A stretch of DNA of 64,000 nt from Deltaproteobacteria bacterium (lineage in GTDB: Bacteria; Myxococcota_A; UBA9160; JAJDAL01). The notes beneath the pieces were generated by a model, which saw only the letters and a list, made by a program, of their open reading frames with translations, did not search any database and was not told the DNA's origin. The stretch covers positions 85,066-149,065 of the forward strand of contig JAJDAL010000034.1 of NCBI GenBank assembly GCA_029261875.1. The letters are read 5' to 3'. Position 1 is the first letter of the stretch; each line of letters starts with the position of its first letter. The translations under genes were made by a program, and so were the position numbers. Below are positions 2 through 33,008 of this stretch, one piece after another.

Positions 2-553
2 GGACTAGAAACTGCGGACACCGCTGGCAACGGCCACGACGGTGACCTCATCGGTGGCGACACAGTTGCTTCGTGGGGCACCAATCCGCCTGGTTCGGGC
101 GCAGACTCGGATGGTGACGGCATCCTCGATGGTTTCGATAACTGCGTAGATGACGCCAATCCCGGCCAGGAAGACGCCGACTCCGACCAGGTCGGCGACG
201 CGTGTGACGAGTACCCCGACGACCCCGACAATGAGCAAGCACAGTGCGAAGTAGACCTTGATCAGTGCCTGCTGATCCCGCCGTTCGTGGATTCAGACCA
301 GGACGGTGAAGACGACTCCACGGATTCATGCCTCGACACCCCGGAAGCTGAGACTGTCGATGGCAATGGCTGCTCCATCGATCAGTTTTGTTCAGTCATT
401 AGTGCTGCAGATCGCACCGGTAGCCGGACCTGCAAGAAGGCGGATTGGCATAACGACGAACCACTCATGCGAGGTCGCGAGCGAGACTGCACGATAAACA
501 AGCAGGGTCGTGGAAGGGATGACGACCTCTGCGTTCCCAATCCCGAATCGTAG
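2..553 (+). CDS. Secreted TSP3-repeat protein (A-family copy A1), 5'-truncated by the window edge, ending in the conserved Cys-rich C-terminal module (A-CTD)
   Basis: The frame of listed ORF 287..553 stays open back to nt 2. The translation GHDGDLIGGDTVASWGTNPPGSGADSDGDGILDGFDNCVDDANPGQEDADSDQVGDACD is a close paralog of the middle of 6720..7877. D-x-D-x-DG-x-x-D-x-C TSP3-type repeats are present. The tail GCSIDQFC..CKKADWHNDEPLMRGRERDCT..CVPNPES recurs at 4751..5014 and 17414..17683. Confidence 0.8.
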   Translation, partial: GLETADTAGNGHDGDLIGGDTVASWGTNPPGSGADSDGDGILDGFDNCVDDANPGQEDADSDQVGDACDEYPDDPDNEQAQCEVDLDQCLLIPPFVDSDQDGEDDSTDSCLDTPEAETVDGNGCSIDQFCSVISAADRTGSRTCKKADWHNDEPLMRGRERDCTINKQGRGRDDDLCVPNPES

Positions 554-985
554 TTAGGAGTATCGATGCGTTCCTTTAGCAGAGCTGTTCTAGTGGTCGC
601 GACTGGGATCGTTGCAACGAGTGCCAATGCCATTGACCTACCGGTTGCCTACTTGATCGACTTCAAAGAGTTCAAGAAGAACGTCGTCGCTGGCGCACCA
701 TTGTCGTTTGATCTCCACGCCGAATCGGATTGCAGCGGCAGCGCGGTCTATGGCGAGATGAAGTTCGCCGGGGCCACGGATGTAATTGCCGAGAAGGTGA
801 CCCAACAAAGGGCGAAGGGACAAAAACCGTCCCCGCCCAGGGGTATCCGGCTTTCTACTACGCTGGCTCCTTCCTCGGTCGGTGAGCAGCTGTTTCTCAA
901 GGTGACCGGCGACGGCATCGTTCCGCTGGAGAGTGATTGCCAGCCGCAGGTTTCGGCTATCCCGGGACCGCCCGGTGATCCTTCC
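284..985 (+). repeat. Conserved 'hinge' copy 1: A-CTD, 12-nt spacer and B N-domain
   Basis: Long stretches align by eye at nucleotide level with 17414..18085. One example is gtcgcgagcgagactgcacgat in both copies. The start contexts tcgatgcgttcctttagc also match. Confidence 0.8.
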
Positions 986-1390
986 GAAGTGATGCACCTG
1001 TTCGACGGAGATGGAAACGACCTAGGAGTTTCCATAGGTGGAGGGTCGGCATTCTATGACGAATCCATCGATGCGATCGTCGCACTAACCCCAACGACGG
1101 GCGAGTACGGTGGCGGCGGAGGGGTGTGGTTTGAGTCAAATGACTGTACGGGGCAGGCGTACGTCAAAGCGTTTCTAGTCCAACAATTTATATTCTCTGA
1201 AACCGGCAGCGAATGGGTAGGTGATATTTCAGCCATAACAACCCGCCAATTTCAATCGCAGCTCTCAGGGTCTCCTCATGTTTGCATCCTCACTTCAAAC
1301 ATGGAAACCGTTGTTACCGCCACACCTGTGAGTTCGGGCTTTACGTTCCCTTTCCCCCTGCCGCTCTATCTCGCCCCCGGCACCAACTAA
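566..1390 (+). CDS. Secreted B-family protein P1: conserved N-domain, GPPGDP tract and variable Cys-containing head
   Basis: Leader MRSFSRAVLVVATGIVATSANA. The N-domain IDLPVAYLIDFKEFKKN..KGQKPSPPRGIRL..EQLFLKVTGDGIV..DCQPQ is shared with 1404, 7902, 12432(-) and 17696. The head ends in the Pro-rich TFPFPLPLYLAP. The gene starts 12 nt after the A1 stop. Confidence 0.85.
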   Translation: MRSFSRAVLVVATGIVATSANAIDLPVAYLIDFKEFKKNVVAGAPLSFDLHAESDCSGSAVYGEMKFAGATDVIAEKVTQQRAKGQKPSPPRGIRLSTTLAPSSVGEQLFLKVTGDGIVPLESDCQPQVSAIPGPPGDPSEVMHLFDGDGNDLGVSIGGGSAFYDESIDAIVALTPTTGEYGGGGGVWFESNDCTGQAYVKAFLVQQFIFSETGSEWVGDISAITTRQFQSQLSGSPHVCILTSNMETVVTATPVSSGFTFPFPLPLYLAPGTN

Positions 1391-1403: not shown

Positions 1404-2213
1404 GTGAGATTCCTAATGCTGATTCTGATCTTCGTTCCAGTAGTGGCCGCAGCCGCCGACATCCCCGTCGAGTACCTCGCCGACTTCAAGGAGTTCAAGC
1501 GCAACGCCATCGTGGGCGACTCGCTCTCCTTCGACCTCTACACCGACGCCACCTGCACCGGAGCTGTGGCTCACGCAGAGCTGAAGTTCGTGGGTGGTGC
1601 CGGGCTCACCGTCGAGAAGACGCTCCCCCAGCGGTCCAAAGGCGAGAAACCCTCGCCGACAAAGGGAGTGCGGCTTCACTCCACGCTGTCGCCGTCGGTG
1701 GTTGCCGAGCAGCTCTACCTCAAAGTGGTGGGCACGGGCGTTGTGGCGCTGGGTGGGGAGTGCCAGCCACAAGCCGCTGCGATCCCCGGCCCTCCGGGGG
1801 AGTCTGCGCAGGTGCTCCACCTCTTCGATGCCAACGATCTCGACCTCGGCATTCTGGTGGATCAGGAGCTGGGGTCTTACACGTTTTTTCGCGAGTCTGA
1901 AGGGGTGTTCCGTGTCAAACTTTCGGGGGCGCTGGACAACAAAACCTTCGTCGAGTACGAAACGCCGGACTGTACCGGGCAGGGTTACGTGAAGGAAAAT
2001 CTCACGGGATCGGTCGTAACCACTGGTGGGGCAGACCTGTTCTTGGTACAGGAAGCGCTTGGCGTTTCGATCGAGCGACAGTCCGAAATCGGCGACGGAG
2101 TCTGCTTTCCCCTCAGCATTGGTACGGCCACCGGAATGGTTCCAGCAGACCCGCTCACGACGGATCTCACATTTCCACTTGTGGTTCCATTCCGAATCGA
2201 ACTGGCGCCGTAG
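1404..2213 (+). CDS. Secreted B-family protein P2
   Basis: GTG start preceded by AAGGAAGG; an alternative ATG lies at 1416. Hydrophobic leader. The N-domain DIPVEYLADFKEFKRNAIVGDSLSFDLY..KGEKPSPTKGVRL..EQLYLKVVGTGVVALGGECQPQ is followed by GPPGES. The head carries the YETPDCTGQGY motif and the tail TFPLVVPFRIELAP. Confidence 0.85.
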   Translation: MRFLMLILIFVPVVAAAADIPVEYLADFKEFKRNAIVGDSLSFDLYTDATCTGAVAHAELKFVGGAGLTVEKTLPQRSKGEKPSPTKGVRLHSTLSPSVVAEQLYLKVVGTGVVALGGECQPQAAAIPGPPGESAQVLHLFDANDLDLGILVDQELGSYTFFRESEGVFRVKLSGALDNKTFVEYETPDCTGQGYVKENLTGSVVTTGGADLFLVQEALGVSIERQSEIGDGVCFPLSIGTATGMVPADPLTTDLTFPLVVPFRIELAP

Positions 2214-2545: not shown

Positions 2546-3130
2546 ATGGAGAAACGTTTCCGACTACCGGTTGCCAGTTGTGACGAATGCCAGGCCGACC
2601 TTGAGCTCCGGGTGGTTCTCTCCGGTGTTCGGCTCTCGGCGTTGACCGTTGACTGCACGGCCTGCGAGTCTCACACGGACCTCCTGGAGGGTTCTCGCCA
2701 TCAGGTCGCCCGATCGAAAGAGAGCCTGAAGCGCGCCTCACGAGAGGCCGCTCGATCGATCAGGGAGGCACGTCGGTTCGTGCCGCGTGACCGAGAAGAC
2801 GTGAAGGAGGCGTTGCGGAACCCCAAGCATCCCTTCACGGCAGCCGTTCTAACGGGTCTTGTCATCGTTGCGATGGAACTGTCCGGCTTCGGAATCTACA
2901 TGGCGGTCACGACGCTTCTGGCGGCTTTGGTGCTGAACCCGGTCGGGTGGGTGGTGGTTCCTCTTGTGGTGGCCATTGCCTTCGCCTACAGGGGGAAGCT
3001 CAAGTCAGACCGGCTCGAAAAGTTGAAGGGCCAGATCGACGATCTTGAAAAGCAGAAGGAGGAAGGGCTGCTGACTCCGGAACAGTTCGAGGCGGCTCGC
3101 GACGAGCTTGTGACGAAGCTTCTATCGTGA
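2546..3130 (+). CDS. Membrane protein with a zinc-ribbon-like N-terminus and a SHOCT-like C-terminus
   Basis: CDEC..CTAC Cys pairs; two long hydrophobic helices (AAVLTGLVIVAMELSGFGIYMAVTTLLAALVL, VGWVVVPLVVAIAFA); a C-terminal GLLTPEQFEAARDELVTKLL that matches the SHOCT pattern. Confidence 0.75.
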   Translation: MEKRFRLPVASCDECQADLELRVVLSGVRLSALTVDCTACESHTDLLEGSRHQVARSKESLKRASREAARSIREARRFVPRDREDVKEALRNPKHPFTAAVLTGLVIVAMELSGFGIYMAVTTLLAALVLNPVGWVVVPLVVAIAFAYRGKLKSDRLEKLKGQIDDLEKQKEEGLLTPEQFEAARDELVTKLLS

Positions 3131-3672
3131 GGTTGATGGAGAGGGGTGTAGGTTCATCATCAACCATACTCCTGGTGGCTTTCCTCGCGACGGGCTGCGC
3201 GACAGCCCCTTCCGGGCCATGCCCGCGAACTGAGTGGGGTGGCGTCTTCAAGGCCGCTACTGGCAACGGCCAACCAATGTTCGGTCCCTGCACAGTCCCC
3301 TACGTCGTGGATGGAGACACCGTGGACGTTCGGTGCGGACGTGTGTGTGACCGCGTCCGGCTCCTCAGGATCAACACGCCGGAAAGAGGTGAGGCTGGGT
3401 ACCAGGAGGCCAAGAGTTCGTTAGAAGCGATGGTTCGCGAAGGAAACGTCTACCTCAGCTTTGAAGTCCCGGGCAAACCGAAACAGGGAGGTTACAAGCG
3501 TCTGTTGGCCTACCTGTACGTCGATGGTCGAAACCTCAACGTTGAGATGATTCGGCAAGGGTGGTCACACTTTTGGACCAAGTACGGGAAGGGAAGGCTC
3601 TTCGAGGCCGATCTCCACGAGGCCGAGCAGGAGGCCAGAAGAACCGGTAGAGGACTGTGGGCCAAACAGTAG
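3127..3672 (+). CDS. nuc: Thermonuclease (staphylococcal nuclease family) lipoprotein
   Basis: Lipobox LATGC. SNase motifs VVDGDTVDV, VRLLRINTPE, RLLAYLYVDGRNLNVEMIRQGW and GRGLWA. The GTG start overlaps the upstream stop as GTGA; an alternative ATG lies at 3136. Confidence 0.9.
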   Translation: MRLMERGVGSSSTILLVAFLATGCATAPSGPCPRTEWGGVFKAATGNGQPMFGPCTVPYVVDGDTVDVRCGRVCDRVRLLRINTPERGEAGYQEAKSSLEAMVREGNVYLSFEVPGKPKQGGYKRLLAYLYVDGRNLNVEMIRQGWSHFWTKYGKGRLFEADLHEAEQEARRTGRGLWAKQ

Positions 3673-3832: not shown

Positions 3833-5014
3833 ATGCGTCTCGTTGTCTGTCCGGTGTCTGCCCGCGACATCACCATTGTTGTAGCTGCTCACCTCTGTGC
3901 TCTTCTACTTGGACCAGCGGCTTCGGCGCAAGCTCCGATCAACCTCGAATATCTCTTCAGTCAGTCGGACAACCTGCGGGGTTCTTCAAATAATATTCAG
4001 CTCCGGACGAGAGTGGACGGCGTCACCCAGCCGTTCAACAGCATGTCGATTCAGCACGACGACCTACTGGTAACGATCTCAACCGAGATCTCTGCCAACC
4101 GTAGAACAGCTTCATTCTCCTCGATCGAGTTCTTTGCGTCCTACGCGAGTCCTTCCTTTGACGGAGAGTTCGATCTTGGCTTCGACGGCAAGGTTCCCTT
4201 TCGATTGACGGTCAGGGAGCTGGAATTCCACTGCCTGAACATCAACGCAAATCTAGCCATCAACTTGAACTTTGATGAAACCTTTTCATTCTGCGATGGA
4301 ACACTCACCACAGTATTCGAGGTACTCGGAAACACCGAAACAGTAGTGGAGACTCATCAGTCGGGTATCAACTTGCGGGGCACTTTCATTCCGACGCCCG
4401 ATCTGTCTGAGGTCGCAATAGAGATCTATACAGAGGTCGCCGCTACCTTCGACAACGACGCGTTCAATCTCAATGCGCTCGGACACTCTTTGGAGTTGCA
4501 GCCGAATCTCAGGCTGGTGTTGGATCTTCGGGGCTCTGCTGAATCAGACGCTCCACCACCACCGATTCCGGATGCCGATGGGGACGATGTTCCCGATATT
4601 CGAGACAACTGCCCCGACGAGGCCAACTCAGATCAGTTGGATAGAGATTTCGATTTCGTAGGCGACGCTTGCGACCCCTTCCCCGACGACCGCGACAATG
4701 AACAAGCCGAGTGTGAGGCGGATCTCCTCCTCTGCCAGATCAGCCCCGTATTCGTAGACACCGACGGTGACGGCGAAGATGACTCCACGGATTCATGCCC
4801 GGCCACTCCCGCCGCCCAGGAGGTTGATGGCGACGGCTGCTCTCTGGACCAGTTCTGCGGGCTGGTTGATGCCTCAGACCGAACCGGTAGTCGCGTCTGC
4901 AAAAAGAGCGACTGGAAGAACGACGAGCCGATCATGAAGTCGCGCGATAGGGACTGCACTGTGGATCGGGGTGACAGGGGCAGGGAGGACGATCGATGCG
5001 TTCCGTCCGTCTGA
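3833..5014 (+). CDS. Secreted A-family protein A2: unknown N-domain, TSP3 repeats, short Cys-heptad segment and A-CTD
   Basis: Leader with AASAQA. TSP3 repeats DADGDDVPDIRDNCPDEANSDQLDRDFDFVGDACDPFPDD. Then DNEQAECEADLLLC, followed by the tail GCSLDQFC..CKKSDWKNDEPIMKSRDRDCT..CVPSV. Confidence 0.85.
   Translation: MRLVVCPVSARDITIVVAAHLCALLLGPAASAQAPINLEYLFSQSDNLRGSSNNIQLRTRVDGVTQPFNSMSIQHDDLLVTISTEISANRRTASFSSIEFFASYASPSFDGEFDLGFDGKVPFRLTVRELEFHCLNINANLAINLNFDETFSFCDGTLTTVFEVLGNTETVVETHQSGINLRGTFIPTPDLSEVAIEIYTEVAATFDNDAFNLNALGHSLELQPNLRLVLDLRGSAESDAPPPPIPDADGDDVPDIRDNCPDEANSDQLDRDFDFVGDACDPFPDDRDNEQAECEADLLLCQISPVFVDTDGDGEDDSTDSCPATPAAQEVDGDGCSLDQFCGLVDASDRTGSRVCKKSDWKNDEPIMKSRDRDCTVDRGDRGREDDRCVPSV
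4751..5014 (+). repeat. Partial hinge copy (A-CTD only)
   Basis: FVDTDGDGEDDSTDSC..GCSLDQFC..CVPSV is paralogous to 284..553. The start context gatcgatgcgttcc of the following gene resembles the B-gene start context. Confidence 0.7.
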
Positions 5015-6711
5015 GATGCGAGAGTTTCTGTATCTGCCTGGTTGCGACGGCGCTTATGCCGACAATGGCTGCAGGGTTTCCGTTGGTTCCGGGCGATATC
5101 TTGATTTCGCCGACAATTTACATCTCATGTGCCGCGAGCCGACCGATCCTCGTGAATCCTGTAACGGGCGCGCAGCAGCGCTTGGAGAGCATGCCGCCAC
5201 CTACATCAGTCGCGTTTGCGCCCAATGGCGACCTGTTCCTCACTGATGGAGATGTGCAACGCATCGACCCCGCCACTGGCCTGGTCCTTCAGACCTACCA
5301 AGGTGGCAACCTTCATTCGCCGTATGGAATTTCCGTTAGTCCGAATGGCGAGGTCTATGTGATGGATTCGACGGCCAACATCTGCTTTGACGCTGAAAAT
5401 TTGACCTTAGTGAGGATCGATCCTGTGTCAGGCCAACAGACGTTGGTCACGTCATTTGTCTCGACGCTCGTCGTGGACACTGCGGTCGAACCCACCGGCG
5501 ATATCCTGGTCCTAGACTTGAGTACAGGGGTGATACGAGTCGATGCGACAACAGGTGATCAACAACTGTTGGCCAGCATAACCAGCCCCTTTGGCATTAC
5601 AGTTGAAGATACGGGCCAGGCCCTTGTAGCCGGTGAAGCACTGGTTCGCGTTGATCCAGTTAGTGGAAGCCAAAGCACGGTCTGGTCCGATGAGTTTTCG
5701 CTAGCCGTGGCGGTAGAGCCTTCCGAGAACATCGTCGTTTTTGAAGCCAATGGTGCGCTGATTCGCGTCGCACCGTCAGGTGCGTTTAGTTCAGTGATAT
5801 CGTCCGGCGGATTCTTGCCGGACCTAGTGGGGTTCGTTGATCTTGCGATCATGCCGGGAACGGCTCCGGACGCTGACTCTGACGGAATTCGAGACGATTC
5901 GGACAACTGCCCCAATATTGCGAACTTCGACCAGTCCGACCTCGATGGCGATAGCGTGGGCGATGTCTGCGACAACTGTCCCCAAGTGGCGAATTCTATC
6001 CAGACGGACAACGACGCGGACGGTATCGGAGATTTGTGTGATGCCTGCACCACAACCGCCTGGACCAATCCTCCCACGAACCCGCCCGATCAGAATCCAA
6101 TCAAGTCCCAGGTGAGAGTTACTCATCTCAGCCGTGGACCCGGCGAGCAGCGGATATTGGCGAAGGGCTTCACTAACCCAGCCACGTTTCCATCCAGCGG
6201 TTTGGAAGCTATTGGGTTGCACCTCGCAATCGAGGACTCTGATGGACTGCTCTACGAGGCAAACGTTCCCCCCGGCTTGGTAGGTGCCCTCCAGTGTGGA
6301 TCACGGGATGGATGGCGCGTTTCAACCACCAACAGCGGAAGGACGACATCGCGCTACACCAACCGCACCGGGGCGTTTCCGCCAGGCTGTTTGCCTGGGT
6401 CCGCACAGGGCGTGACATCCATTGTGGTCAAGGACCTGACAACGACCAACAAGCAATCGTTCCAGTACATCGTCAAGACGAAGGACCACAGCCTACTTCG
6501 GGTCCCAACACTGCCGTTGAATCTCGTCCAGTTCGACATTTCCCTTGGAGCGCAGACAACGCCAGGGGAAGCAACTCCCGAAGCCATTGAGGGGCAGTGC
6601 GCGGAATCGAAGTTTGAGGGTGACCCGATTCCTTCCAGCTCCCCGAAACCGTTCTGCAAGGTGCGGACAAGAAGCGGTGAGCTTGATCGCATCGATTGCA
6701 AGGGACAGTGA
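4996..6711 (+). CDS. Secreted protein with beta-propeller-like repeats (NHL/YVTN type by eye), TSP3 repeats and an unknown C-domain
   Basis: Leader MRSVRLRCESFCICLVATALMPTMAAG. Repeated motifs SPYGISVSPNGEVYVMDS, VVDTAVEPTGDILVLD and SPFGITVEDTGQALVAG. TSP3 block DADSDGIRDDSDNCPNIANFDQSDLDGDSVGDVCDNCPQVANSIQTDNDADGIGDLCDAC. The start overlaps the A2 stop by 19 nt. Confidence 0.8.
   Translation: MRSVRLRCESFCICLVATALMPTMAAGFPLVPGDILISPTIYISCAASRPILVNPVTGAQQRLESMPPPTSVAFAPNGDLFLTDGDVQRIDPATGLVLQTYQGGNLHSPYGISVSPNGEVYVMDSTANICFDAENLTLVRIDPVSGQQTLVTSFVSTLVVDTAVEPTGDILVLDLSTGVIRVDATTGDQQLLASITSPFGITVEDTGQALVAGEALVRVDPVSGSQSTVWSDEFSLAVAVEPSENIVVFEANGALIRVAPSGAFSSVISSGGFLPDLVGFVDLAIMPGTAPDADSDGIRDDSDNCPNIANFDQSDLDGDSVGDVCDNCPQVANSIQTDNDADGIGDLCDACTTTAWTNPPTNPPDQNPIKSQVRVTHLSRGPGEQRILAKGFTNPATFPSSGLEAIGLHLAIEDSDGLLYEANVPPGLVGALQCGSRDGWRVSTTNSGRTTSRYTNRTGAFPPGCLPGSAQGVTSIVVKDLTTTNKQSFQYIVKTKDHSLLRVPTLPLNLVQFDISLGAQTTPGEATPEAIEGQCAESKFEGDPIPSSSPKPFCKVRTRSGELDRIDCKGQ
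5869..6048 (+). repeat. Thrombospondin type-3-like Ca-binding repeat block (coding)
   Basis: Four consecutive D-x-D-x-D-G-x-x-D-x-C-D-x-C-P units read directly from the translation. Confidence 0.8.
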
Positions 6712-6719
6712 GGGACAAG

Positions 6720-7877
6720 ATGAGGCACTGGATCATCGCCATGTTACTCGGGCTCTCGACCCTTGCAGGAAAATCCAGCGCATTCGACAACGACTTCCAC
6801 GTGGTGCTCAACGGAATTGGCCGAGAGGTGATCGCCAACGACAGTTACACCGGAATCCTGGACACCGATGCCCGCACGATCAGTTGGTGGTACCGGTCGC
6901 ACATAGGGACGTTTCCATCCGTCTGGGGAATCATCTACTGGGGACAGACATGGTCCATTCAGCTGGAAGGTTTTGATGGCGGAAGTATCAACTGCGAGTG
7001 CGGGGGGAACAAGATCGCATGGACAGCGAACAACAACCCTGCGATGGGCTCTCTCCAGAATTGGCAATGGCATCACATAGTGATGACCGCTCCAGCGGGT
7101 GGAACTTACGGCGACATCAGGCTCTACTTGGATGGTGTTTTGCTCCCGACCCCCTCAGTGGTCGGAGGTAGCTTCGCAAACAGCTACGACACGATTCCGT
7201 TCATTCCCTATCGGGCAGGAGCGCGGAACCTCGGCAACCACGCAGACGCCGACATGGACGAAATCGCGCTGTGGGATGCAGAACTTAACGCGTCGGCAGT
7301 AGCGGAGATTTTCAACGGTGGGATTCCAACCGACCTTGAAGTCAACGGTGCTTCCTACACCAACGCGGGAGACCTTCAGCTCTACTGGAGATTCGAGGAA
7401 GGCAGCGGGCTGGAGACAGCTGACGTAACGGAGAGCGGTCACGACGGTGACCTCATCGGCGGTGACACGGTTTCATCCTGGGGAACCAACCCGCCGGGCT
7501 CAGGCTCCGACTCGGACGGCGATGGAATCCTCGACGGTTTCGACAATTGCGTGGACGACGCCAATCCTGGGCAGGAGGACGCTGATTCAGATCTAGTTGG
7601 AGACATCTGCGATCCCTTCCCCAGTGACCCAGACAACGAGCAGGCGCAATGCGAAGTGGACCTGGCTGATGCCGAAGCCGCTGCGAATGCTTGTTTCGGT
7701 GCAGCCCCAGCGTGCAGCGACGGGGTTGACAACGACAACGATGGATTTATCGACTTCTCGGGAAACGACCCCGAGTGTGTCACGGCGTTAGACAACGCCG
7801 AGGGATGCGGACTTGGCGCTGAACTGGTTCTACTAATCCCGCTGTTGCAACGGATACGCCGCAAGCGATCTTTTTAG
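6720..7877 (+). CDS. Secreted LamG (concanavalin-A-like) - TSP3 protein with a GC-TM-RRR (MYXO-CTERM-like) tail
   Basis: Leader MRHWIIAMLLGLSTLAGKSSA. LamG_3-type motifs DARTISWWYRS, WHHIVMTA, GDIRLYLDGVL and DMDEIALWDAELNASAVAEIFNGG. TSP3 repeats. Tail EGCGLGAELVLLIPLLQRIRRKRSF. Confidence 0.85.
   Translation: MRHWIIAMLLGLSTLAGKSSAFDNDFHVVLNGIGREVIANDSYTGILDTDARTISWWYRSHIGTFPSVWGIIYWGQTWSIQLEGFDGGSINCECGGNKIAWTANNNPAMGSLQNWQWHHIVMTAPAGGTYGDIRLYLDGVLLPTPSVVGGSFANSYDTIPFIPYRAGARNLGNHADADMDEIALWDAELNASAVAEIFNGGIPTDLEVNGASYTNAGDLQLYWRFEEGSGLETADVTESGHDGDLIGGDTVSSWGTNPPGSGSDSDGDGILDGFDNCVDDANPGQEDADSDLVGDICDPFPSDPDNEQAQCEVDLADAEAAANACFGAAPACSDGVDNDNDGFIDFSGNDPECVTALDNAEGCGLGAELVLLIPLLQRIRRKRSF
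7797..7874 (+). other. Putative C-terminal sorting signal (Gly-Cys, hydrophobic helix, Arg/Lys cluster)
   Basis: AEGCGLGAELVLLIPLLQRIRRKRSF has the architecture of the MYXO-CTERM / GC_trans_RRR class of exosortase-type tails. This is pattern recognition only. Confidence 0.55.
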
Positions 7878-7901: not shown

Positions 7902-8756
7902 ATGCGCAGTCTATTCGCCCTCACTATTTTCTTTCTTTGCCAGTCTGCAGCTGTCGCTATTGACTTGCCGGTTGAGTACCTGGCCGACTTCAAGGAGTTC
8001 AAGCGGAACGCTATTGCGGGTGACTCGCTCTCCTTCGATCTCTTCGACAACGACACCTGCACCGGTCCCGTGACCCACGCGGAGCTTAAGTTCGTAGGCG
8101 GTGCCGGTCTCACCGTTGAGAAAACGCTCCCCCAGAAGGCCAAGGGGCAGAAGCCCTCGCCGACGAAGGGTGTCCGGCTTCACACCTCGCTGTCACCGGC
8201 GGCGGTTGAGGAGCAGCTCTACCTCAAGGTGACGGGTACGGGTGTTGTGGCGCTGCGGGATGAATGCCAGGTACAGATCGCGGGGGTTCCTGGGCCGGAA
8301 GGGCCGGCTGGACCGCCGGGCGACGCTGCGGAAGTGATGCACGTATTTGATGGAAGCGGGAACGACATTGGGATTCGGATGGGATCGCTGAACGACCTTT
8401 CCGCCTATCGACCATCTCTGGACGCCACGCTGCCAATCACGAAATTCGGAACGCTCGACGCAGGTCCCTCGCACGTGTACGAACTACCCGGATGCCTCGG
8501 GCAGGGGTACTACCAGGGCAGCAAGGCCCTTCTGTCCGCGAACGTTGTCTATGAGAGCAGGTTGGTGCCTGGAACTTACGTTATCGGCACCACCACCGTC
8601 GTTTCGAGCACCTACGAATCAGTGGCAGACCCTGGCGGTATTTGCCAAGCGACGGGGCCAGCGAACGATCCGTCCCTCATACCATTCGCTCCCATCGTTA
8701 TCGACCTAACCTTCCCTTTGCCGCTTCCGATGCGGATCGGGCCAGCTTCACCGTAG
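7902..8756 (+). CDS. Secreted B-family protein P3
   Basis: GGAGG RBS. Leader MRSLFALTIFFLCQSAAVA. N-domain IDLPVEYLADFKEFKRNAIAGDSLSFDLF..KGQKPSPTKGVRL..EQLYLKVTGTGVVALRDECQVQ. Five G-X-Y triplets. Head with YELPGCLGQGY and tail TFPLPLPMRIGP. Confidence 0.85.
   Translation: MRSLFALTIFFLCQSAAVAIDLPVEYLADFKEFKRNAIAGDSLSFDLFDNDTCTGPVTHAELKFVGGAGLTVEKTLPQKAKGQKPSPTKGVRLHTSLSPAAVEEQLYLKVTGTGVVALRDECQVQIAGVPGPEGPAGPPGDAAEVMHVFDGSGNDIGIRMGSLNDLSAYRPSLDATLPITKFGTLDAGPSHVYELPGCLGQGYYQGSKALLSANVVYESRLVPGTYVIGTTTVVSSTYESVADPGGICQATGPANDPSLIPFAPIVIDLTFPLPLPMRIGPASP
8283..8327 (+). repeat. Collagen-like G-X-Y tract (5 triplets) in P3
   Basis: GVP GPE GPA GPP GDA read directly. Confidence 0.8.
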
Positions 8757-12431: not shown

Positions 12432-13343
12432 CTACTCAGCGCGCGAATGGATCGGCAGAGCGAGAGGTACAGGCATGCCGACCACCGTGCTCAGTACCTC
12501 TCGCGCAGTGACTGCTTCCGGCCTCACTCCGACTGTGTTCATACACCCTGGAGGCGAGAGCAGGTCAATAATCGACTCGAACGGAGCCGATGACACCAGT
12601 TCGTTTCCCCCAACGAAGAAACGGTCAGGTGCGGTAACAGGACCAGTGAAGACGAGCCGAGTTGCGAACTCGAACGGGAGGTACGCGGTCCCGACGCAAT
12701 TCGGAAGCTCAAAGACGATGGCTCCCACCCCGGTGGGTCCGATCAAGAGTCCATTGGACTTGTCGATGAGAACGAATGCATCGAGATCCTCACGGTACGC
12801 CGTAACCGTAGTCAGCGGCGAAAAGATGAGATCCTCTCGGATCAGCAGCCCCAAGTTAACATCGCTGCCGTCGAACACTCGGAGAGTCAGTCCACTCGCT
12901 CCGGGCGGCCCTTTCGCCCCTTCTGGGCCGGACGGCCCCGGTATCGCCGCAGTTTGAACCTGACACTCGCCGCCAATGGGTACGACACCGTCGCCGCTCA
13001 CCTTCAAGTAGAGCTGCTCAACCACAACAGGCGGCCCAAGAGTTGTCCGAAGCCGCACTCCCCTGGGCGGCGACGGCTTTTCCCCCTTGGCTTTCTGCGG
13101 GATGACTTTCTCCACTTGGAGGTCTCCACTCGCCAGAAACTTCAGCTCCGCGTGAAACACCGTCCCGGTGCAGTCCGCGGCCGCGAAGAGGTCAAAGGAA
13201 AGAGAGTTTCCGGCGACGGCCTCTTTCTTGAAGGTCTTAAAGTCCGCGACATACGAAACGGGAAGCTCGACTGCGCTTCCAGAACTTGCGAACGAGAGTA
13301 TGGCGAGTGCAACAATGCACATCCCGAAATCACTGAACTTCAT
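12432..13343 (-). CDS. Secreted B-family protein P4
   Basis: Leader MKFSDFGMCIVALAILSFASSGSA. N-domain VELPVSYVADFKTFKKEAVAGNSLSFDLF..KGEKPSPPRGVRL..EQLYLKVSGDGVVPIGGECQVQ. Six G-X-Y triplets. Head with FELPNCVGTAY and tail MPVPLALPIHS. Confidence 0.85.
   Translation of the reverse strand: MKFSDFGMCIVALAILSFASSGSAVELPVSYVADFKTFKKEAVAGNSLSFDLFAAADCTGTVFHAELKFLASGDLQVEKVIPQKAKGEKPSPPRGVRLRTTLGPPVVVEQLYLKVSGDGVVPIGGECQVQTAAIPGPSGPEGAKGPPGASGLTLRVFDGSDVNLGLLIREDLIFSPLTTVTAYREDLDAFVLIDKSNGLLIGPTGVGAIVFELPNCVGTAYLPFEFATRLVFTGPVTAPDRFFVGGNELVSSAPFESIIDLLSPPGCMNTVGVRPEAVTAREVLSTVVGMPVPLALPIHSRAE
12885..12938 (-). repeat. Collagen-like G-X-Y tract (6 triplets) in P4
   Basis: GPS GPE GAK GPP GAS GLT read directly. 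Confidence 0.8.
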
Positions 13344-13402: not shown

Positions 13403-14026
13403 TCAAGAAGGCGGTGCACAGCACGCGATCGAACGGAAGTCATTGCAGTTCCTCAGGTCAAATGCCCCGTTCGATTCCACCATCAGCCCGGACTCGGCGG
13501 TAAGCCGCCTCCATGCGTCACAAGACATGGAACCTGTCGATCCGCTTGATGGCGTGAAAGCCCCGGACACGTCCGCGATAACACTGTTCGTCGTGCCCCT
13601 AGGGAGCACCACAAAAACAGGTCGGACCCATGCCTCGCCCGATAGGGTTGGGACGTTGACTGTTTCGAGTACTTCCTTACTGGTGCACATCCGGCTATTC
13701 GAGAACTCCGCGTGGCAAGCCGACGTATATTCCAGGACACCATCACCTCCTTTAAACGTCGCGGTGGTAAAGCCCACTAGCTCGTATCGCGGCGACACCC
13801 CCGCCTCGCCCTGTGGCCCCTGCGCTCCATCTTGTCCAGCCGACCCAGCCGGTCCAGGTGGGCCTTCCGATTCCCACGAAATCGCAGCCTCGTTCGACTT
13901 GCACTGGCCCGGGATCGCAACGACACGGAGCTTCCCTGACTTTTGGTGCACACAGCCATCGATGGTTTCGCCTGCAGCCGTTCCAGCTAAAAGAACCGCC
14001 GCGCCAATTGCGATTAGTTCACGCAT
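13403..14026 (-). CDS. Secreted Q-family collagen-like protein Q1 with a Cys-rich endostatin/C-lectin-like C-domain
   Basis: GGAGG RBS. Leader MRELIAIGAAVLLAGTAAG. ETIDGCVHQKSGKLRVVAIPGQCKSNEAAISWE. Eight G-X-Y triplets. C-domain ELVGFTTATFKGGDG..ACHAEF..MC..SCDAWRRLTAESGLMVESNGAFDLRNCNDFRSIACCAP. Confidence 0.8.
   Translation of the reverse strand: MRELIAIGAAVLLAGTAAGETIDGCVHQKSGKLRVVAIPGQCKSNEAAISWESEGPPGPAGSAGQDGAQGPQGEAGVSPRYELVGFTTATFKGGDGVLEYTSACHAEFSNSRMCTSKEVLETVNVPTLSGEAWVRPVFVVLPRGTTNSVIADVSGAFTPSSGSTGSMSCDAWRRLTAESGLMVESNGAFDLRNCNDFRSIACCAPPS
13793..13864 (-). repeat. Collagen-like G-X-Y tract (8 triplets) in Q1
   Basis: GPP GPA GSA GQD GAQ GPQ GEA GVS read directly. Confidence 0.8.
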
Positions 14027-14067
14027 TACCTGCCTCCGCTTAGGGGTTCCCTCCGCCACCGGGAAGG

Positions 14068-14367
14068 TCAATAACAGACGGTGTCCCACACCCAATTTCC
14101 GTATGCATCCTGCCGTCGCACCTGCGTGCAATTATCTGTCCCGATGGGCGGAATATTGAGCCGTTCGACCGGTCTCACTGAAGGCGGAACAATGGGCGTA
14201 ATAGACGGTGGTTGCGGTGGCACGATGTTGATAGTTGAATCACAGATCGGAACATTGGCGCAGTCGCCACTCTCGTCACAGATCCATTCCCAGGTGCATG
14301 ATGCCGCCGCCGGGTTGGCAACTACAATGCACCCGATCAAAGCCAAGATCGCGAAAGTTGATCGCAT
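14068..14367 (-). CDS. Small secreted Cys-rich, Pro-rich protein
   Basis: Leader MRSTFAILALIGCIVVANPAAA. Then SCTWEWICDESGDCANVPICD, a Pro-rich PPQPPSITPIVPPSVRP and the C-terminal CTQVRR..WVWDTVCY. Lies 41 nt upstream of Q1 on the same strand. Confidence 0.6.
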   Translation of the reverse strand: MRSTFAILALIGCIVVANPAAASCTWEWICDESGDCANVPICDSTINIVPPQPPSITPIVPPSVRPVERLNIPPIGTDNCTQVRRQDAYGNWVWDTVCY

Positions 14368-15416: not shown

Positions 15417-15830
15417 ATCCTCCTTTGGTTCCGCTTCCGTGAACTAGTGGACCACTCGAAAGGTTAACTCGCCTACACAAACCTGACTCAGAATCCTTCC
15501 CTAGGTACCCGCAGTCGGCATGTGGTTTGCGTTGTGAAGAAACTAGGGGGTGAGGAACGATGAACGAGTTCGATCGAGTGGCGATTCGCCGCGCCATGCG
15601 GATCGTGGATGGGTGTGACCCAGGACCCCACCCGGGCCTTAGGGTCTCACTGTTGTCAGAGGAAATGCAGGACGAGCTGCGAGGGCTGATAGGGCGCTTG
15701 CCCTATATCACAGGGCTTCCGGTAGCCCAGATAGTCCTCCTAGTCTTCTATAGCTTCGGCTTGCGACCCTGATTCCCACCGCACCGAGTTCCACGCGTAG
15801 AATGGCCTCTGGCTTGCACAGGAGTTGGAC

Positions 15831-16409
15831 ATGTTGAAACAGACTCTTGTTCTCTTGGTCATGTTGGTTCTAGTTCCTGGCATCGCGGCTACCGAGACGA
15901 TCAACGGCTGTGTCCACCAGAAGTCCGGGAAGCTTCGGATCGTCGGTATTCCGGGACAGTGCAAGAGCAGCGAAGCACCGATCTCTTGGGAGGCTGAGGG
16001 ACCGCCCGGTCCCGAAGGGGCGAAGGGAGATAAGGGCGATAAAGGTGACCCCGGTGATCCCGCACCCCAGGCACAGCCGGTGGAACTCGTAGGTTTTACC
16101 GCGGCGCAAATCGCTGGCACGGACTCGTTCTTCGCGCTCAACACAGCCTGCGTCGATGAATTCCCCGGTAGTCACTTCTGCACAGCCACAGACATTGCAC
16201 AAGTATCCGTTCTGCCTGCCGGACTCATAGGCGATGCGTGGTTTACGCCAGCGCCCGGTCCAGATCTCAACTTCTTGAGCAGTTCTCGTGCCTGTAGTGG
16301 CTGGTCGCCTGGTGGCTCAACTGGCCTCCGCATCAATCACATCGGCGTAATAGTTCAGGGTGTGTGTAACCAATCCTTTTCGGCATCGTGCTGCGCACCC
16401 GCACCGTAA
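15831..16409 (+). CDS. Secreted Q-family collagen-like protein Q2
   Basis: CAGGAG lies 7 nt before the ATG. Leader MLKQTLVLLVMLVLVPGIAA. ETINGCVHQKSGKLRIVGIPGQCKSSEAPISWE. Seven G-X-Y triplets. C-domain VELVGFTAAQIAGTD..ACVDEF..FC..ACSGWSPGGSTGLRINHIGVIVQGVCNQSFSASCCAP. Confidence 0.8.
   Translation: MLKQTLVLLVMLVLVPGIAATETINGCVHQKSGKLRIVGIPGQCKSSEAPISWEAEGPPGPEGAKGDKGDKGDPGDPAPQAQPVELVGFTAAQIAGTDSFFALNTACVDEFPGSHFCTATDIAQVSVLPAGLIGDAWFTPAPGPDLNFLSSSRACSGWSPGGSTGLRINHIGVIVQGVCNQSFSASCCAPAP
15999..16061 (+). repeat. Collagen-like G-X-Y tract (7 triplets) in Q2
   Basis: GPP GPE GAK GDK GDK GDP GDP read directly. Confidence 0.8.
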
Positions 16410-16411
16410 CC

Positions 16412-17683
16412 ATGGCGTTTCGATTCAGACTTCCCGAGGCTCCTATGAAATGTGTCCATGTATTCGTTCTCCTCAGTTCCATGTTCCTTCTCGCGCCCCG
16501 AGCTACAGCGGAGATGGTGCCGCTGTTGATTGACCCGGTTTCAATCTCCGTCTCTGTCAGGATCACACAAGGCGAAGGTGCGCCGGTCGAGACAGACAAT
16601 TCAGGTACTGCTTCGGCATCCGCGCAGCTACATAGGAACTTGCTTAGTAATTCTTTCGGCGAGGGCAGTTTAAGCGCAGCCGTAGAAGCCGACCGGATCA
16701 GTTTTGCGGGAGCCGCTAGTGGCTTTAATACCGCAGGGGTCGGTAGTAGCCTAGTTAGGATTGTCTTGAGTAGCGAACTGGAGGTTGCGTTTGATGTCCC
16801 CGATATCGGATTTGCGCTTACGCCGGTCGTCCTGCAGTTCGTCAATGTTTCTCCTCCGAGCGCAACAATATCCATCTCATTCTTCAGCACACTTCTGAAC
16901 GCTGAGCTAACTACCCTCAATCAGACGATAGGTTCTGAAGATGCAGTTGTCCTCGACCTCCTTCCCGGAGATCGGATTATTGTCTCCGGAACCGTACAGG
17001 CTGGTGCCTTGTTCGTTCCCCCTTTCAACGGATCGGGGTCATTCTCAAACTCGTCCCAGTTCCGTTTTCAGGTATCGGACAATCCGAACAACCTTGTCGA
17101 GTGCCAGTCGAACCTCACTCAATGCGTCTCCGATTTGGGGGGTTGTTTGACCAATGCCGCAACCTGCGAGTCCGATCTAAATCTGGCCTTGGGGGATCTC
17201 GCATCGTGTAACGCAACCCTCACCCAACTGGCAACAGATGTTGCTTCATGTAACGACAGCCTTACCGCGTGCTCCACCGACCTCACACAAACGACAACCA
17301 GTCTCTCCCAATGCAGTACCGCTCTCGATTCTACAAGCACGCAGCTATCTGAGGCGCAATCGAGTCTAGACGCAGCCCTCTCCGATTTGGCGCAATGCCT
17401 TTTAGATCCCGGACTACAAGACAGTGATGGTGATGGCGTTCCAGATCCAGGAGATCTATGCCCAAACACAGCCACTACCGATCTCGCCGACGCCCTGGGC
17501 TGTTCACTCCACCAATTTTGCTCGATGGTCAACGCTACGAATCGAGTTGGCAGTCGGGTCTGCAGGAAATCCGATTGGGTCAATGATGAACCTCTGATGA
17601 AGGGTCGCGAGCGAGACTGCACGATCGACAAACGCGGCCGCGGACGAGATGACGATCTCTGCGTGCCCAATCCAGAATTCTAG
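16412..17683 (+). CDS. Secreted A-family protein A3: unknown N-domain, about 100 aa of heptad Cys/Leu coiled-coil-like segment, one TSP3 unit and A-CTD
   Basis: The ATG lies 3 nt after the Q2 stop; an alternative ATG at 16445 gives MKCVHVFVLLSSMFLLAPRATA. Tail DSDGDGVPDPGDLCPNTATTDLADALGCSLHQFC..CRKSDWVNDEPLMKGRERDCTIDKRGRGRDDDLCVPNPEF. Confidence 0.8.
   Translation: MAFRFRLPEAPMKCVHVFVLLSSMFLLAPRATAEMVPLLIDPVSISVSVRITQGEGAPVETDNSGTASASAQLHRNLLSNSFGEGSLSAAVEADRISFAGAASGFNTAGVGSSLVRIVLSSELEVAFDVPDIGFALTPVVLQFVNVSPPSATISISFFSTLLNAELTTLNQTIGSEDAVVLDLLPGDRIIVSGTVQAGALFVPPFNGSGSFSNSSQFRFQVSDNPNNLVECQSNLTQCVSDLGGCLTNAATCESDLNLALGDLASCNATLTQLATDVASCNDSLTACSTDLTQTTTSLSQCSTALDSTSTQLSEAQSSLDAALSDLAQCLLDPGLQDSDGDGVPDPGDLCPNTATTDLADALGCSLHQFCSMVNATNRVGSRVCRKSDWVNDEPLMKGRERDCTIDKRGRGRDDDLCVPNPEF
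17093..17398 (+). repeat. Heptad-periodic Cys/Leu segment (coding)
   Basis: Cys-to-Cys spacings are 7,7,7,14,14,7,14,28 residues. Leu/Val sits 3 residues before each heptad end. Counted directly in LVEC QSNLTQC VSDLGGC LTNAATC ESDLNLALGDLASC NATLTQLATDVASC NDSLTAC STDLTQTTTSLSQC ...LSDLAQC. Confidence 0.85.
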
Positions 17684-18085
17684 ATAGGAAATTCGATGCG
17701 TTCCTTTAGCCGAGTTTCTTTAGTACTAGCCACTGTAACTTTCGCGATGACTGGTCATGCCATTGACCTACCTGTGACCTACCTCGCCGACTTCAAGGAG
17801 TTCAGGCGAAACGCCATCGCTGGCGATTCACTCTCCTTCGACCTCTACACCGACGACGCCTGCACGGGGGTCGTGGCTCACGCGGAACTGAAGTTCGTGG
17901 GCGGTTCCGGGCTCACCGTCGAGAAGACGCTGCCCCAGAAGGCCAAGGGTCAGAAGCCGTCACCGACGAAGGGCGTGCGGCTCCACACGACGCTGTCGCC
18001 CGCGGCGGTGGCCGAGCAGCTCTACTTGAAGGTGACGGGCACCGGCGTCGTCGCGTTGGGAGATGAGTGCCAAGTGCAGGTGGCG
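17414..18085 (+). repeat. Conserved 'hinge' copy 2: A-CTD, 12-nt spacer and B N-domain
   Basis: See 284..985. The flanks (A body upstream, B head downstream) are unrelated between the two copies. Confidence 0.8.
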
Positions 18086-18562
18086 GGGATTCCTGGACCG
18101 GAAGGACCCAAGGGCGATCCCGGACCCTTGCTGGATGTCGCGGCGCGAGTCTATAGCGCGAATGACATAACGGTGGCGCGGTTCTCCAGCCAAGCGCTGA
18201 GTTTTCCAGAGGAGCGATGGGATACGGCTGCCCTGCATGACCCAGCCCAGCCATCAAGAATCGTGATTCCAGCAAGCGGGAACTACCTGATCTATGCGAA
18301 TCTGGCCTGGAGCGCTGCGGACCTGTTTGGAACGGAGCGCTTTGTGATGCAGTTTCGAGTGAATGGGTCACAGATAACCGCCTCACAAACCAACAATGCC
18401 GACGGGCTCCCTTTGAACCCAACCCATTCTCTTAGTACTGCCGCGCTTTTAGTAGCCGGAGACTACTTGGAGGTTGTAGTAGAGCACAGTGCCCCGAGCA
18501 ACCGGCGCATCGTGGCTCTTCCCGACTACTCACCGGACTTCGGAATCGTTCGTCTCCCATAA
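17696..18562 (+). CDS. Secreted B-family protein P5 with a C1q/TNF-like head
   Basis: Leader MRSFSRVSLVLATVTFAMTGHA. Conserved N-domain. Tract GIP GPE GPK GDP GPL. The head motifs IVIPASGNYLIYANLAW..FVMQFRVNGSQI..STAALLVAGDYLEVVVE..SPDFGIVRLP match the C1q jelly-roll pattern. Starts 12 nt after the A3 stop. Confidence 0.85.
   Translation: MRSFSRVSLVLATVTFAMTGHAIDLPVTYLADFKEFRRNAIAGDSLSFDLYTDDACTGVVAHAELKFVGGSGLTVEKTLPQKAKGQKPSPTKGVRLHTTLSPAAVAEQLYLKVTGTGVVALGDECQVQVAGIPGPEGPKGDPGPLLDVAARVYSANDITVARFSSQALSFPEERWDTAALHDPAQPSRIVIPASGNYLIYANLAWSAADLFGTERFVMQFRVNGSQITASQTNNADGLPLNPTHSLSTAALLVAGDYLEVVVEHSAPSNRRIVALPDYSPDFGIVRLP
18086..18130 (+). repeat. Collagen-like G-X-Y tract (5 triplets) in P5
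   Basis: Read directly from the translation. Confidence 0.8.
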
Positions 18563-19782: not shown

Positions 19783-20316
19783 ATGGAGACGATGTCGAAA
19801 GGTGTCCCTTCAGGTTCTAGTGACTGCCGTAGACCTATTGAGCAATGGGAAAGGAGACCATTGGCCGATGTAGGACAGTTGGTCCGGGAACTGCGATCGA
19901 CATCCGGAATGACTCAGGCGCAGCTAGGTGCGGCCGCAAAACTCTCCCGGGTCCAGGTCTGTCGAATCGAGAAGGGAACGAGACGGACGCGGCGTTCGAC
20001 GCTTGAACGAATTTCCGCTGCGATCAGTGCGAAGCGGCCGTGGCTGGGAACACCCGCCCTTCTAACTCAGCGTCTTGTATCAATGGCAGGAGACGCCCTG
20101 GCGCCTGAGTCGAAGTTTCGAGAGCGAATCGAGCGTCGGCGGCTTCGGAGGATTCGGAAATCTCGACGCCAGGTAGAGAGCCGAACACCGCGGCCCGGCG
20201 AAAAGTCGCAGCACTATCTTCGCCGCTTGGATTCGCTCGGCCGATCACCGGCATCGGATGTGCCCTGCCCCACCTGCGGCCAGTTCAAGGCCCGCCGAAC
20301 GATCTGGGCAGATTGA
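19783..20316 (+). CDS. XRE/Cro-C1-type HTH transcriptional regulator
   Basis: LVRELRSTSGMTQAQLGAAAKLSRVQVCRIEKGTRRTRRSTLERISAAI fits the HTH_3 pattern. Basic C-terminal part with CPTCGQ. Confidence 0.75.
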   Translation: METMSKGVPSGSSDCRRPIEQWERRPLADVGQLVRELRSTSGMTQAQLGAAAKLSRVQVCRIEKGTRRTRRSTLERISAAISAKRPWLGTPALLTQRLVSMAGDALAPESKFRERIERRRLRRIRKSRRQVESRTPRPGEKSQHYLRRLDSLGRSPASDVPCPTCGQFKARRTIWAD

Positions 20317-20436
20317 TGCGCGTCCCGAAAGGTTCAGGTTTTGGGACCAATGGTCCGGTGTCGATTGCCGACCCAAGTACGGGAGCTTACGGACTCCCTT
20401 GTCCCGCGAATCGCGCACCCTTTTGGGACATGCAGT

Positions 20437-21036: not shown

Positions 21037-21424
21037 GGCAATCCCTCCGGCTCTCAAATCTAGATGCAACGGTCTCGTTTGCATAGGAAACGAATTGAGA
21101 AAACGAAAGTACGGTCTTCCACTTTGGAGTCCCCGCCCTGGAGCCCGAAGCACACGTAGGGTCGCGCTTAACAGCCCCACGCAGAACATGCGGGGAGTTG
21201 AGATCGGACAGAGGCCCCCCACCCCCCTTCTGGGTAATGGGTCCCATCTAGCTGTCACTTGGGGCCCCAGCGGCGCTCCCCCAAAAAAAACTGTTCGCGC
21301 GCGAGGGAGCTCCGACTAAACTCTTGTGGGGCGCGGCTCGGCTCGGCCGGCCGAATGTCGGGATCCTGCAACCGACGTGCCGCGCCCTCCTTTTACGCTG
21401 CAGGACGCGCCAGCAGGAGGCGCA

Positions 21425-22216: not shown

Positions 22217-22242
22217 CCCCCCCCATTTTACTCGGGGTTATT
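22212..22242 (+). terminator. Stem-loop overlapping the stop codon of 21425..22216
   Basis: aataacccc (22212..22220) pairs with ggggttatt (22234..22242) across a 13-nt loop. There is no clear T-run, so its function is uncertain. Confidence 0.3.
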
Positions 22243-22323
22243 CCCCTAGTTCCAATGACGACGGCATGCGACCGTTCGCTCTCGAACGCAGTGGTTGCCA
22301 ATACCACGACGGGGGCACATCGA

Positions 22324-32095: not shown

Positions 32096-32145
32096 TCCAC
32101 TCCCGAACACAACCCCCATGGCTCGAAAGGAGCGCAATGCCCCGC

Positions 32146-32978: not shown

Positions 32979-33008
32979 GACTATCAGAAAACTGACGACG
33001 CGGTGAAT

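Follow-up and report, generated by a model that had tools for sequence, protein, structure and literature searches.

The mosaic adhesive trimer (MAT) fibres of Bdellovibrio bacteriovorus are paralogous exported proteins of ~600-1100 amino acids (aa) in which an invariant N-terminal domain without a PDB homologue, presumed to bind an element of the cell surface, is combined with a long trimeric stalk that is not collagen and with variable, swappable tips such as TNF/C1q-like folds and S74 chaperone domains (PMC10769870). An arrangement of similar logic is found in a 64,000-nucleotide (nt) stretch of DNA from Deltaproteobacteria bacterium (Myxococcota_A; contig JAJDAL010000034.1, positions 85,066 to 149,065), the whole of which was analysed here and is referred to as the window. 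Its first 18.6 kb form a dense run of genes for predicted exported proteins, and within this run a "hinge" between adjacent genes appears to be the meeting point of two unrelated module families, a C-terminal domain that ends the A proteins (A-CTD) and an N-terminal domain that opens the B proteins (B-N). The hinge probably represents one ancestral operon junction that survives in two diverged copies within a lineage-specific cluster of matrix-like exported paralogues; this cluster would run from position 1 to ~18.6 kb, extend upstream of the window and encode Sec-exported, extracellular-matrix-like proteins, as predicted from their sequences.

Like the MAT fibres, the B family combines an invariant N-domain with variable C-terminal tips among paralogues, and two relatives of B-N likewise carry Peptidase_S74, but the B proteins are only 265-303 aa long, with at most a few Gly-X-Y triplets and no long stalk. 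The likeness refers to architecture, and the window has no known predatory context. BclA of Bacillus anthracis and Scl1/Scl2 of Streptococcus comprise an N-terminal attachment or trimerisation domain, a Gly-X-Y triple-helix stalk and a globular head. Relatives of B-N show the same layout, 20 of 149 having a Pfam Collagen match directly after B-N, but B-N has no sequence similarity to the N-domains of BclA or Scl, the stalks in the window are very short and a C1q-type head is not confirmed. The B proteins are moreover secreted in the diderm manner and are not anchored to an exosporium or by LPXTG. A constant N-terminal part with alternative C-terminal heads is also the hallmark of the invertible tail-fibre segments of phages Mu (G segment/Gin) and P1. 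The B family shares the constant part and the differing heads, has one copy inverted and lies near an invertase-sized serine recombinase, but the window differs in that a scan of 1-26 kb gave no matched inverted sites and every B gene is complete; neither module was found in viral contigs and B-N has no PHROG match.

In the cohesin-dockerin system of cellulosomes a small calcium-binding C-terminal tag, carried by many bodies, is bound by a beta-sandwich partner; dockerin is a duplicated calcium-binding F-hand (Pfam Dockerin_1), and the partners co-occur in a genome and often in a locus. A-CTD and B-N share the logic of tag and beta-sandwich, but A-CTD has one DxDxDG loop and a five-cysteine core where dockerin has its duplicated F-hand, no outside neighbourhood that was scanned contains both modules, and neither Dockerin nor Cohesin was matched in Pfam. 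With thrombospondin/COMP the A proteins share a Cys-flanked coiled-coil-like segment, TSP3 calcium loops and then a C-terminal domain. Among models from Myxococcus (MtsC/TraB; NCBIfam NF047638 and NF033763), that for MtsC matches the TSP3 region of the A proteins and 14 of 36 A-CTD relatives, with all scores far below the equivalog cut-offs for MtsC and TraB. The 58-aa cysteine core of A-CTD has no counterpart in TSP_C, MtsC or OmpA-type anchors. The logic of the locus, in short, is known, with a constant anchor and variable heads, C-terminal tags on varied bodies and mosaics among paralogues; what is new is the B-N and A-CTD families, which are absent from Pfam, NCBIfam, PHROGs and PDB. The hinge as such is ordinary.

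The A-to-B junction and its two copies

Positions in the feature lines refer to the window.

2..553 (+): 3' part of A1; the full gene, 420 aa on contig L053, encodes a signal peptide, Laminin_G_3, TSP3 repeats and A-CTD
287..550 (+): A-CTD of A1, a TSP3-type DxDxDG loop and five-Cys core (368-544), ending 2 aa before the stop
464..583 (+): patch of peak identity, 97/120 positions (81%) shared with 17594-17713
554..565 (+): A1/B1 spacer, TTAGGAGTATCG, 12 nt, with the Shine-Dalgarno motif for B1
566..1390 (+): B1, with signal peptide, B-N (629-955), GPPG linker and the head type common to B1-B4
1404..2213 (+): B2, with B-N (1452-1778) and the shared head type; 13 nt after B1, no A-CTD upstream
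3833..5014 (+): A2, with a body without Pfam match, TSP3 and A-CTD (core 4835-5008)
7902..8756 (+): B3, with B-N (7956-8282), GPEGPAGPPG collagen-like linker and the shared head type
12432..13343 (-): B4, with B-N (13274-12948), collagen-like linker and the shared head type; follows gene 13403-14131(-)
16388..17683 (+): A3, with a body without Pfam match, a Cys-spaced coiled-coil-like segment, TSP3 loop and A-CTD (core 17498-17674)
17684..17695 (+): A3/B5 spacer, ATAGGAAATTCG, 12 nt
17696..18562 (+): B5, with signal peptide, B-N (17759-18085), GPEGPKGDPGP linker and a different head type

Two junctions in the window join an A gene to a B gene through the same pair of modules, A1/B1 at 553/566 and A3/B5 at 17683/17696. 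At the first the TAG stop of A1 occupies 551-553 and the ATG of B1 lies at 566, and at the second the TAG of A3 occupies 17681-17683 and the ATG of B5 lies at 17696, so that the spacing from stop to start is exactly 12 nt in both. The start context tcgATGCGTTCCTTTAGC is identical at B1 and B5, both spacers contain an AGGA Shine-Dalgarno (ribosome-binding) motif, and the spacers agree at 8 of 12 positions. Hidden Markov models (HMMs) for A-CTD and B-N were built here and all 64 kb of the window were scanned, which yielded exactly three copies of A-CTD and exactly five of B-N, with the extents listed above. The 12-nt spacing, the common start context and the additional copies at 4751, 1404, 7902 and 12432(-) had all been given in the original prediction from the sequence. 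No further copy of either module lies in the 9.4 kb upstream of the window that are supplied by contig L053, which also provides the full length of A1; the Logan contigs that match the window come from run SRR15505512.

The outer parts differ between the two junctions, as had likewise been proposed. A1 has a LamG/TSP3-type body (Laminin_G_3 and TSP3), whereas the body of A3, described beforehand as an unknown domain with a cysteine-spaced segment, indeed has such a segment and no Pfam match. On the B side, the B-N domains of B1-B5 are 52-77% identical to one another while their heads are 28-33% identical or unrelated. The heads of B1-B4 all resemble one another (28-33% identity, with E from 1e-10 to 1e-17), and that of B5 matches the B3 head with E = 0.96 once the Gly-Pro linker is removed. 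The nucleotide similarity of B3 and B5 ends at 8302/18105, inside the Gly-X-Y linker, and it is exactly at this linker that the B5 head changes. The B5 head is thus unlike that of B1, as claimed, but its earlier label as C1q-like is not verified: there is no Pfam C1q match and no PDB sequence match at E up to 10, the AlphaFold2 model of the head has a predicted local distance difference test score (pLDDT) of 33-70, and the resemblance to C1q is a pattern seen by eye only.

The segments 430-695 and 17560-17825 align by blastn at 75% identity over 266 nt, and because of the E-value of 3e-29 this similarity is more than chance. In a global alignment 284-985 and 17414-18085 are 61% identical. The long alignment at nucleotide level that had been reported therefore holds for ~266 nt, the remainder of the ~700-nt span being alike only at the protein level. 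Identity peaks in the patch 464-583, which takes in the final 29 codons of A-CTD, the spacer and the opening six codons of B; of the 18 nt in these six codons, 17 are shared between the two junctions. The longest stretches without any difference between the two hinge copies, of 23 nt (473-495) and 18 nt (in 563-588), have their counterparts at 17603-17625 and 17693-17718. Since the common sequence extends across the spacer and into B as far as its sixth codon, the two junctions are taken to be copies of one ancestral junction, and A1/B1 and A3/B5 consequently amount to one observation of adjacency and not two.

At the A1/B1 junction the octamer TGCGTTCC occurs twice, ~35 nt apart (531-574), once in the C-V-P codons that end A-CTD and once inside the B1 start ATGCGTTCC. 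The C-V-P codons of A3 read TGCGTGCC (17661-17704), so an exact match to the octamer is found only at the B5 start. In A2 the R-C-V-P codons CGATGCGTTCC (4990-5004) themselves supply the start codon, ATG, of the gene that follows; this gene, 4996-6711, has 19 nt in common with A2, encodes an NHL/TSP3 protein and is not a B gene. A third copy of the junction at this point was considered and rejected, the shared TCGATGCGTTCC being the RCVP codons of A2 with no homology further on. Also rejected was an A-B fusion by TAG readthrough: A1 and B1 share a reading frame that one TAG interrupts, but a fusion would bury the signal peptide of B. TAG ends 7 of 14 genes of the cluster, and a shared TAG at the junctions therefore carries no signal.

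Age of the junction and past shuffling of its parts

Codon analysis gave proportions of synonymous differences (pS) of 0.77-0.86 and of nonsynonymous differences (pN) of 0.24-0.27 for pairs of A-CTD, and pS of 0.50-0.79 with pN of 0.15-0.32 for pairs of B-N; segments within the CTD have pS of 0.63-0.93, and pN across the codon analyses is 0.08-0.32. Synonymous sites are saturated, and the copies have diverged long ago under purifying selection. Other duplicated segments of the cluster are equally alike (69-84% at nucleotide level), so that conservation of the hinge is nothing out of the ordinary for this cluster. The body of A1 and that of its paralogue o6696, for instance, are 69% identical at both the nucleotide and the aa level over ~970 nt (77% for 31-258 versus 7436-7663), and the B-N of B5 is nearer in nucleotides by blastn to B2 (84%) and B3 (81%) than to B1.

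Past shuffling is evident. A1 is a three-way mosaic in which aa 1-323 correspond to o6696 (69%), aa 283-417 to A2 (64%) and aa 322-419 to A3 (63%). The last 130 nt of A1 and A3 are 77% identical, and within the CTD the two genes are 52% identical (pS 0.93) over the first 58 codons and 86% identical (pS 0.63) over the last 29; A1 and A2 mirror this, with 71% over the first 58 codons and 52% over the last 29. The suggestion that the hinge is a recombination substrate thus holds as history, in view of the A1 mosaic and the change of head in B5, but not for a substrate in use today. In that form the ~0.7-kb repeat would still shuffle bodies and heads, either by homologous recombination or by programmed inversion through the serine recombinase encoded at 20437-21258(-). 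B4 is indeed inverted relative to B5 and has a 22-nt exact match in common with it, and the Resolvase and HTH_7 gene together with two large serine recombinases lie 2-15 kb away. However, pS is 0.63 even in the best patch, the copies agree at 61-84% of their nucleotides overall, and exact matches between any of them reach 19-25 nt at most. Programmed inversion by the invertase-sized resolvase was rejected because a scan of 1-26 kb for inverted repeats found no well-matched pair of sites, the best being a 30-nt Gly-Pro coding stretch at 83%. In addition, B4 and B5 are complete genes with separate upstream genes, and an inversion would therefore turn neither of them on or off. A hinge that is active at present is accordingly judged highly improbable, and the region does not appear to be a substrate for ongoing recombination.

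The conserved patch could alternatively reflect a regulatory element at the level of nucleotides, in which 464-583 would be conserved because its mRNA folds over the B start and is opened by the ribosomes that complete A. RNAalifold pairs the perfectly conserved run in the coding part of A (473-495) with that spanning the B start (563-588), but this pairing is missing from the minimum-energy folds of the single sequences, whose stability does not exceed that of shuffled sequences (z = +1.5 and +0.6). The paired runs never vary and hence provide no informative covariation, and there is no Rfam match in the window. A structured junction RNA was rejected on these grounds, and the likelihood left to such an element is very slim.

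In the history favoured here, that of a single ancestral junction, the A-to-B junction would have been duplicated long ago and its outer parts would then have been exchanged at module boundaries, that in A being the QCExDL/TSP3 linker and that in B the Gly-X-Y linker. Both halves would have stayed recognisable through purifying selection on the proteins and not through ongoing recombination, and the 12-nt spacer would be an inherited ribosome-binding site that permits coupled translation of B after A.

The two module families within and beyond the window

B-N is a domain of ~110 aa with two near-invariant cysteines and a consensus of A-x-A followed by ADLPVxY ... C ... LYLKVTGTGV ... CQxQ. An AlphaFold2 model of B5 from a 68-sequence alignment predicts residues ~22-130 to form a beta-sandwich with one short helix (pLDDT 85-97). 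No match was found in Pfam, NCBIfam, PHROGs or a PDB profile search, and Foldseek with the B-N model returned a generic immunoglobulin-like similarity only, with nothing below E 1e-3 in PDB or BFVD. A phage origin was rejected, as neither module occurs in viral contigs, PHROGs hold nothing for B-N or A-CTD, and none of the Foldseek matches to BFVD is below 1e-3.

A profile was made from the five window copies and one metagenomic relative, and among 1.84 billion cluster representatives (50% identity) it retrieved 546 proteins, 361 of them below 1e-10. The match nearly always begins within the first ~40 residues, and the proteins are mostly 200-400 aa long. About one third of the top 150 relatives have at least three Gly-X-Y triplets right after B-N, starting at residues ~125-165, and some have runs of up to ~40 triplets. 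Pfam matches in the heads of 149 relatives comprise Collagen (20, as above), Peptidase_S74 (2), FGE-sulfatase (2) and phage tail Collar (1). In the window there are three to five triplets in B3, B4 and B5 and GPPG only in B1 and B2, and no B protein of the window matches Pfam Collagen. Because of the analogy with BclA-type collagen-like proteins and with the MAT fibres of Bdellovibrio, the B proteins may be regarded as short trimeric fibres in which the constant N-domain would serve as the base, as anchor and/or trimer nucleator, and the variable head would bind a ligand.

Several relatives of B-N were observed in their genomic setting. The closest outside relative of the window's B-N is P0005, a protein of 219 aa without a collagen run (L001, 10001-10660), on a plasmid-like contig or one resembling an integrative and conjugative element, with ParA/ParB, Phage_rep_O, Replic_Relax and a TraG-like gene as neighbours. 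Loci L048-L050 and L052 (three nearly identical) have a main-clade B gene of ~230 aa followed by an ECH_1 enoyl-CoA hydratase and a Pec_lyase/SQHop_cyclase-like gene, and in L052 an integrase lies 3 kb further downstream. A scan of species representatives, for which a 16-sequence alignment was used, placed L004-L006 in metagenome-assembled genomes of Polyangiaceae and "Deltaproteobacteria". In L004 (3635-4762) and L006 (9953-10599) B-N is fused to Cys-rich C-terminal repeats (for example ...CARCATGKMCTVNGDCLSSICSGGTCQ) and not to collagen or the head types of the window; the upstream neighbours of both genes are ordinary metabolic genes on the opposite strand.

A-CTD consists of a TSP3-type DxDxDG loop and a 58-aa five-cysteine core of the pattern GCSxxQFC-x13-C-x-K-x-DWxNDEP-x7-DC-x~11-C-V-P. 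The core has no match in Pfam, NCBIfam or PHROGs and no meaningful match in a PDB profile search, and its AlphaFold2 model from a 7-sequence alignment is unusable (pLDDT 46.7). The TSP_3 (PF02412) scores of A1-A3 are 16.5-18.8 bits against a Pfam gathering cut-off of 25, whereas TSP_3 is matched in 16 of 36 A-CTD-bearing relatives with a best E of 2e-34. A Cys-flanked motif, QCExDLxxC, often precedes the TSP3 loop, as in A1, A2, A3, P0007 and L003. A word-index protein search with A-CTD recovered four fragments in other metagenomes, and a metagenome scan found the domain in 39 loci, which with L003 makes 40 outside loci and 48 domain copies. In 26 of 30 full-length matches A-CTD ends 1-5 aa before the stop, and the bodies that precede it include a recurrent unnamed body, subtilase, several beta-propellers, DUF7948 and TSP_3.

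Within the window the module is replaced in the A1-body paralogue o6696:

6696..7877 (+): o6696, paralogue of the A1 body (69% aa over 323 aa), without A-CTD; B3 is the next gene

In place of the A-CTD of A1, o6696 ends in an acidic double-disulfide repeat and the tail GCGLGAELVLLIPLLQRIRRKRSF (7750-7877), which has a Cys motif (GCG), a hydrophobic stretch and an Arg-rich end (RIRRKR). A MYXO-CTERM sorting tail is built from a Cys motif, a hydrophobic helix and an Arg-rich end (PMC11980579). A search of NCBIfam for MYXO-CTERM or another sorting model at E up to 0.1 matched only the acidic double-disulfide repeat, but the tail resembles, in its sequence, a cell-surface sorting signal of the MYXO-CTERM type. 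Because A-CTD has a fixed C-terminal position on many bodies and is replaced by a tail of this kind in o6696, it may act as a general-purpose C-terminal attachment or binding module.

An attractive proposal for the hinge was that its halves are a co-evolving docking pair, A-CTD binding the beta-sandwich of B-N in the manner of dockerin and cohesin so that variable A bodies are mounted on B fibres. Two of the three A-CTD genes precede a B gene at identical 12-nt spacing, which would suit coupled translation and equal dosage, and the dockerin/TSP3-like calcium loop of A-CTD, the predicted beta-sandwich of B-N, the predicted export of both proteins and the occurrence of A-CTD on many bodies, like a docking tag, are all in keeping with the proposal. 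However, the two junctions share ancestry across the junction itself and count as one adjacency. The other B genes come after genes without A-CTD, B2 following B1, B3 following o6696 and B4 following the collagen-like gene 13403-14131(-), and A2 precedes a non-B gene. The B-N of B5 is nearest to those of B2 and B3, both of which lack a preceding A-CTD, and not to that of B1, so there is no sign of pair-specific co-variation. Scanning A1-A3 and B1-B5 against Pfam with E up to 0.1 returned only weak TSP_3 for the A proteins and nothing for the B proteins, with no match to Dockerin or Cohesin.

The evidence from outside the window points the same way. Six-frame HMM scans of all fetched loci show that the window alone holds both modules. 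B-N is absent from the loci of all 48 A-CTD copies (0/48; 40 outside loci, 272 kb), for 40 of which the downstream sequence extends to 500 nt or more and for 33 to 1 kb or more, and the genes downstream of these copies are varied. Conversely, A-CTD is absent from the eight distinct B-N loci of other organisms (0/8; L001, L004-L006, L047, L048, L051 and L052; 110 kb), where the upstream genes are unrelated metabolic or plasmid genes. The modules thus occur independently and are not adjacent elsewhere, contrary to what was expected of a co-evolving pair; docking appears to have no support beyond one inherited adjacency and is considered unlikely. A narrower version, in which this lineage would use A-CTD, with its calcium loop and Cys-knot-like core, in the manner of a dockerin and insert it into B-N at the foot of short trimeric collagen-like fibres, is rated as very unlikely. 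If true, the fibres, whose heads are exchangeable, would carry LamG-type and other bodies, and two bacterial genes would make up a mix-and-match scaffold outside the cell that has no relation to cellulosomes; elsewhere each module would have other partners.

Some points weigh against the reading preferred here, that of one old junction in two copies. The identity peak at 464-583, with its 23- and 18-nt runs, exceeds what selection at the protein level alone predicts, and to account for it one has to assume a conversion or recombination event that came later but is itself old. The independence of the modules refers to neighbourhoods of up to 10 kb on each side and not to whole genomes, and the eight distinct outside B-N loci all belong to the main clade, none to the subclade closest to the window's B genes. 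The role proposed for A-CTD derives only from its position and the exchange of tails, its model having the low pLDDT given above, and the trimerisation proposed for the B proteins has against it that their collagen-like stretches are short, only GPPG in B1/B2 and only 3-5 triplets in B3-B5.

The surrounding cluster and its significance

At least three paralogous families of matrix-like exported proteins, A, B and a further family termed C, are present in the cluster. The two C members lie directly upstream of B4 and A3:

13403..14131 (-): C member with N-terminal motif IDGCVHQKSGKLR, collagen-like run and Cys-rich head; upstream of B4
15825..16409 (+): second C member, 39% identical to 13403-14131 (E 2e-44); upstream of A3

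Both have the N-terminal motif I[DN]GCVHQKSGKLR[VI]V.IPGQCKS, a Gly-X-Y run and a Cys-rich head. The genes of the cluster are found in the orders C-A3-B5, C'-B4, LamG(A1)-B1-B2 and LamG(o6696)-B3, from which repeated duplication with gain, loss or exchange of modules can be deduced.

The cluster also contains two distinct SNase (staphylococcal-nuclease-type) genes with lipoprotein-like N-termini, one at 3127-3672 (= L053 12571-13107) and one upstream of the window (L053 7733-8206(-)). Beside the former are genes for a small Cys-rich secreted protein (2243-2542) and a SHOCT-tailed membrane protein (2546-3130). The GC content is 0.57 for 1-19 kb and 0.63 for 26-64 kb, no tRNA genes were found in the window, and a mobile-element-like block (19783-34668) adjoins the cluster:

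19783-20316: HTH gene
20437-21258 (-): invertase-sized Resolvase+HTH_7 gene
22572-25166: DUF3987 protein
25688-27214 and 33079-34668: two large serine recombinases, 72% identical in nucleotides

The supposed co-evolving docking hinge becomes an ordinary history of duplication and module shuffling, which spares follow-up effort. Neither B-N nor A-CTD alone settles a long-standing question, but both deserve domain models. A-CTD may be a new C-terminal attachment module, since it is interchangeable with a sorting-signal-like tail in the paralogue o6696. B-N, with 546 or more clusters at the 50% identity level, might anchor widespread small secreted fibres or nucleate their trimers, and it parallels in its logic the MAT fibres of Bdellovibrio.

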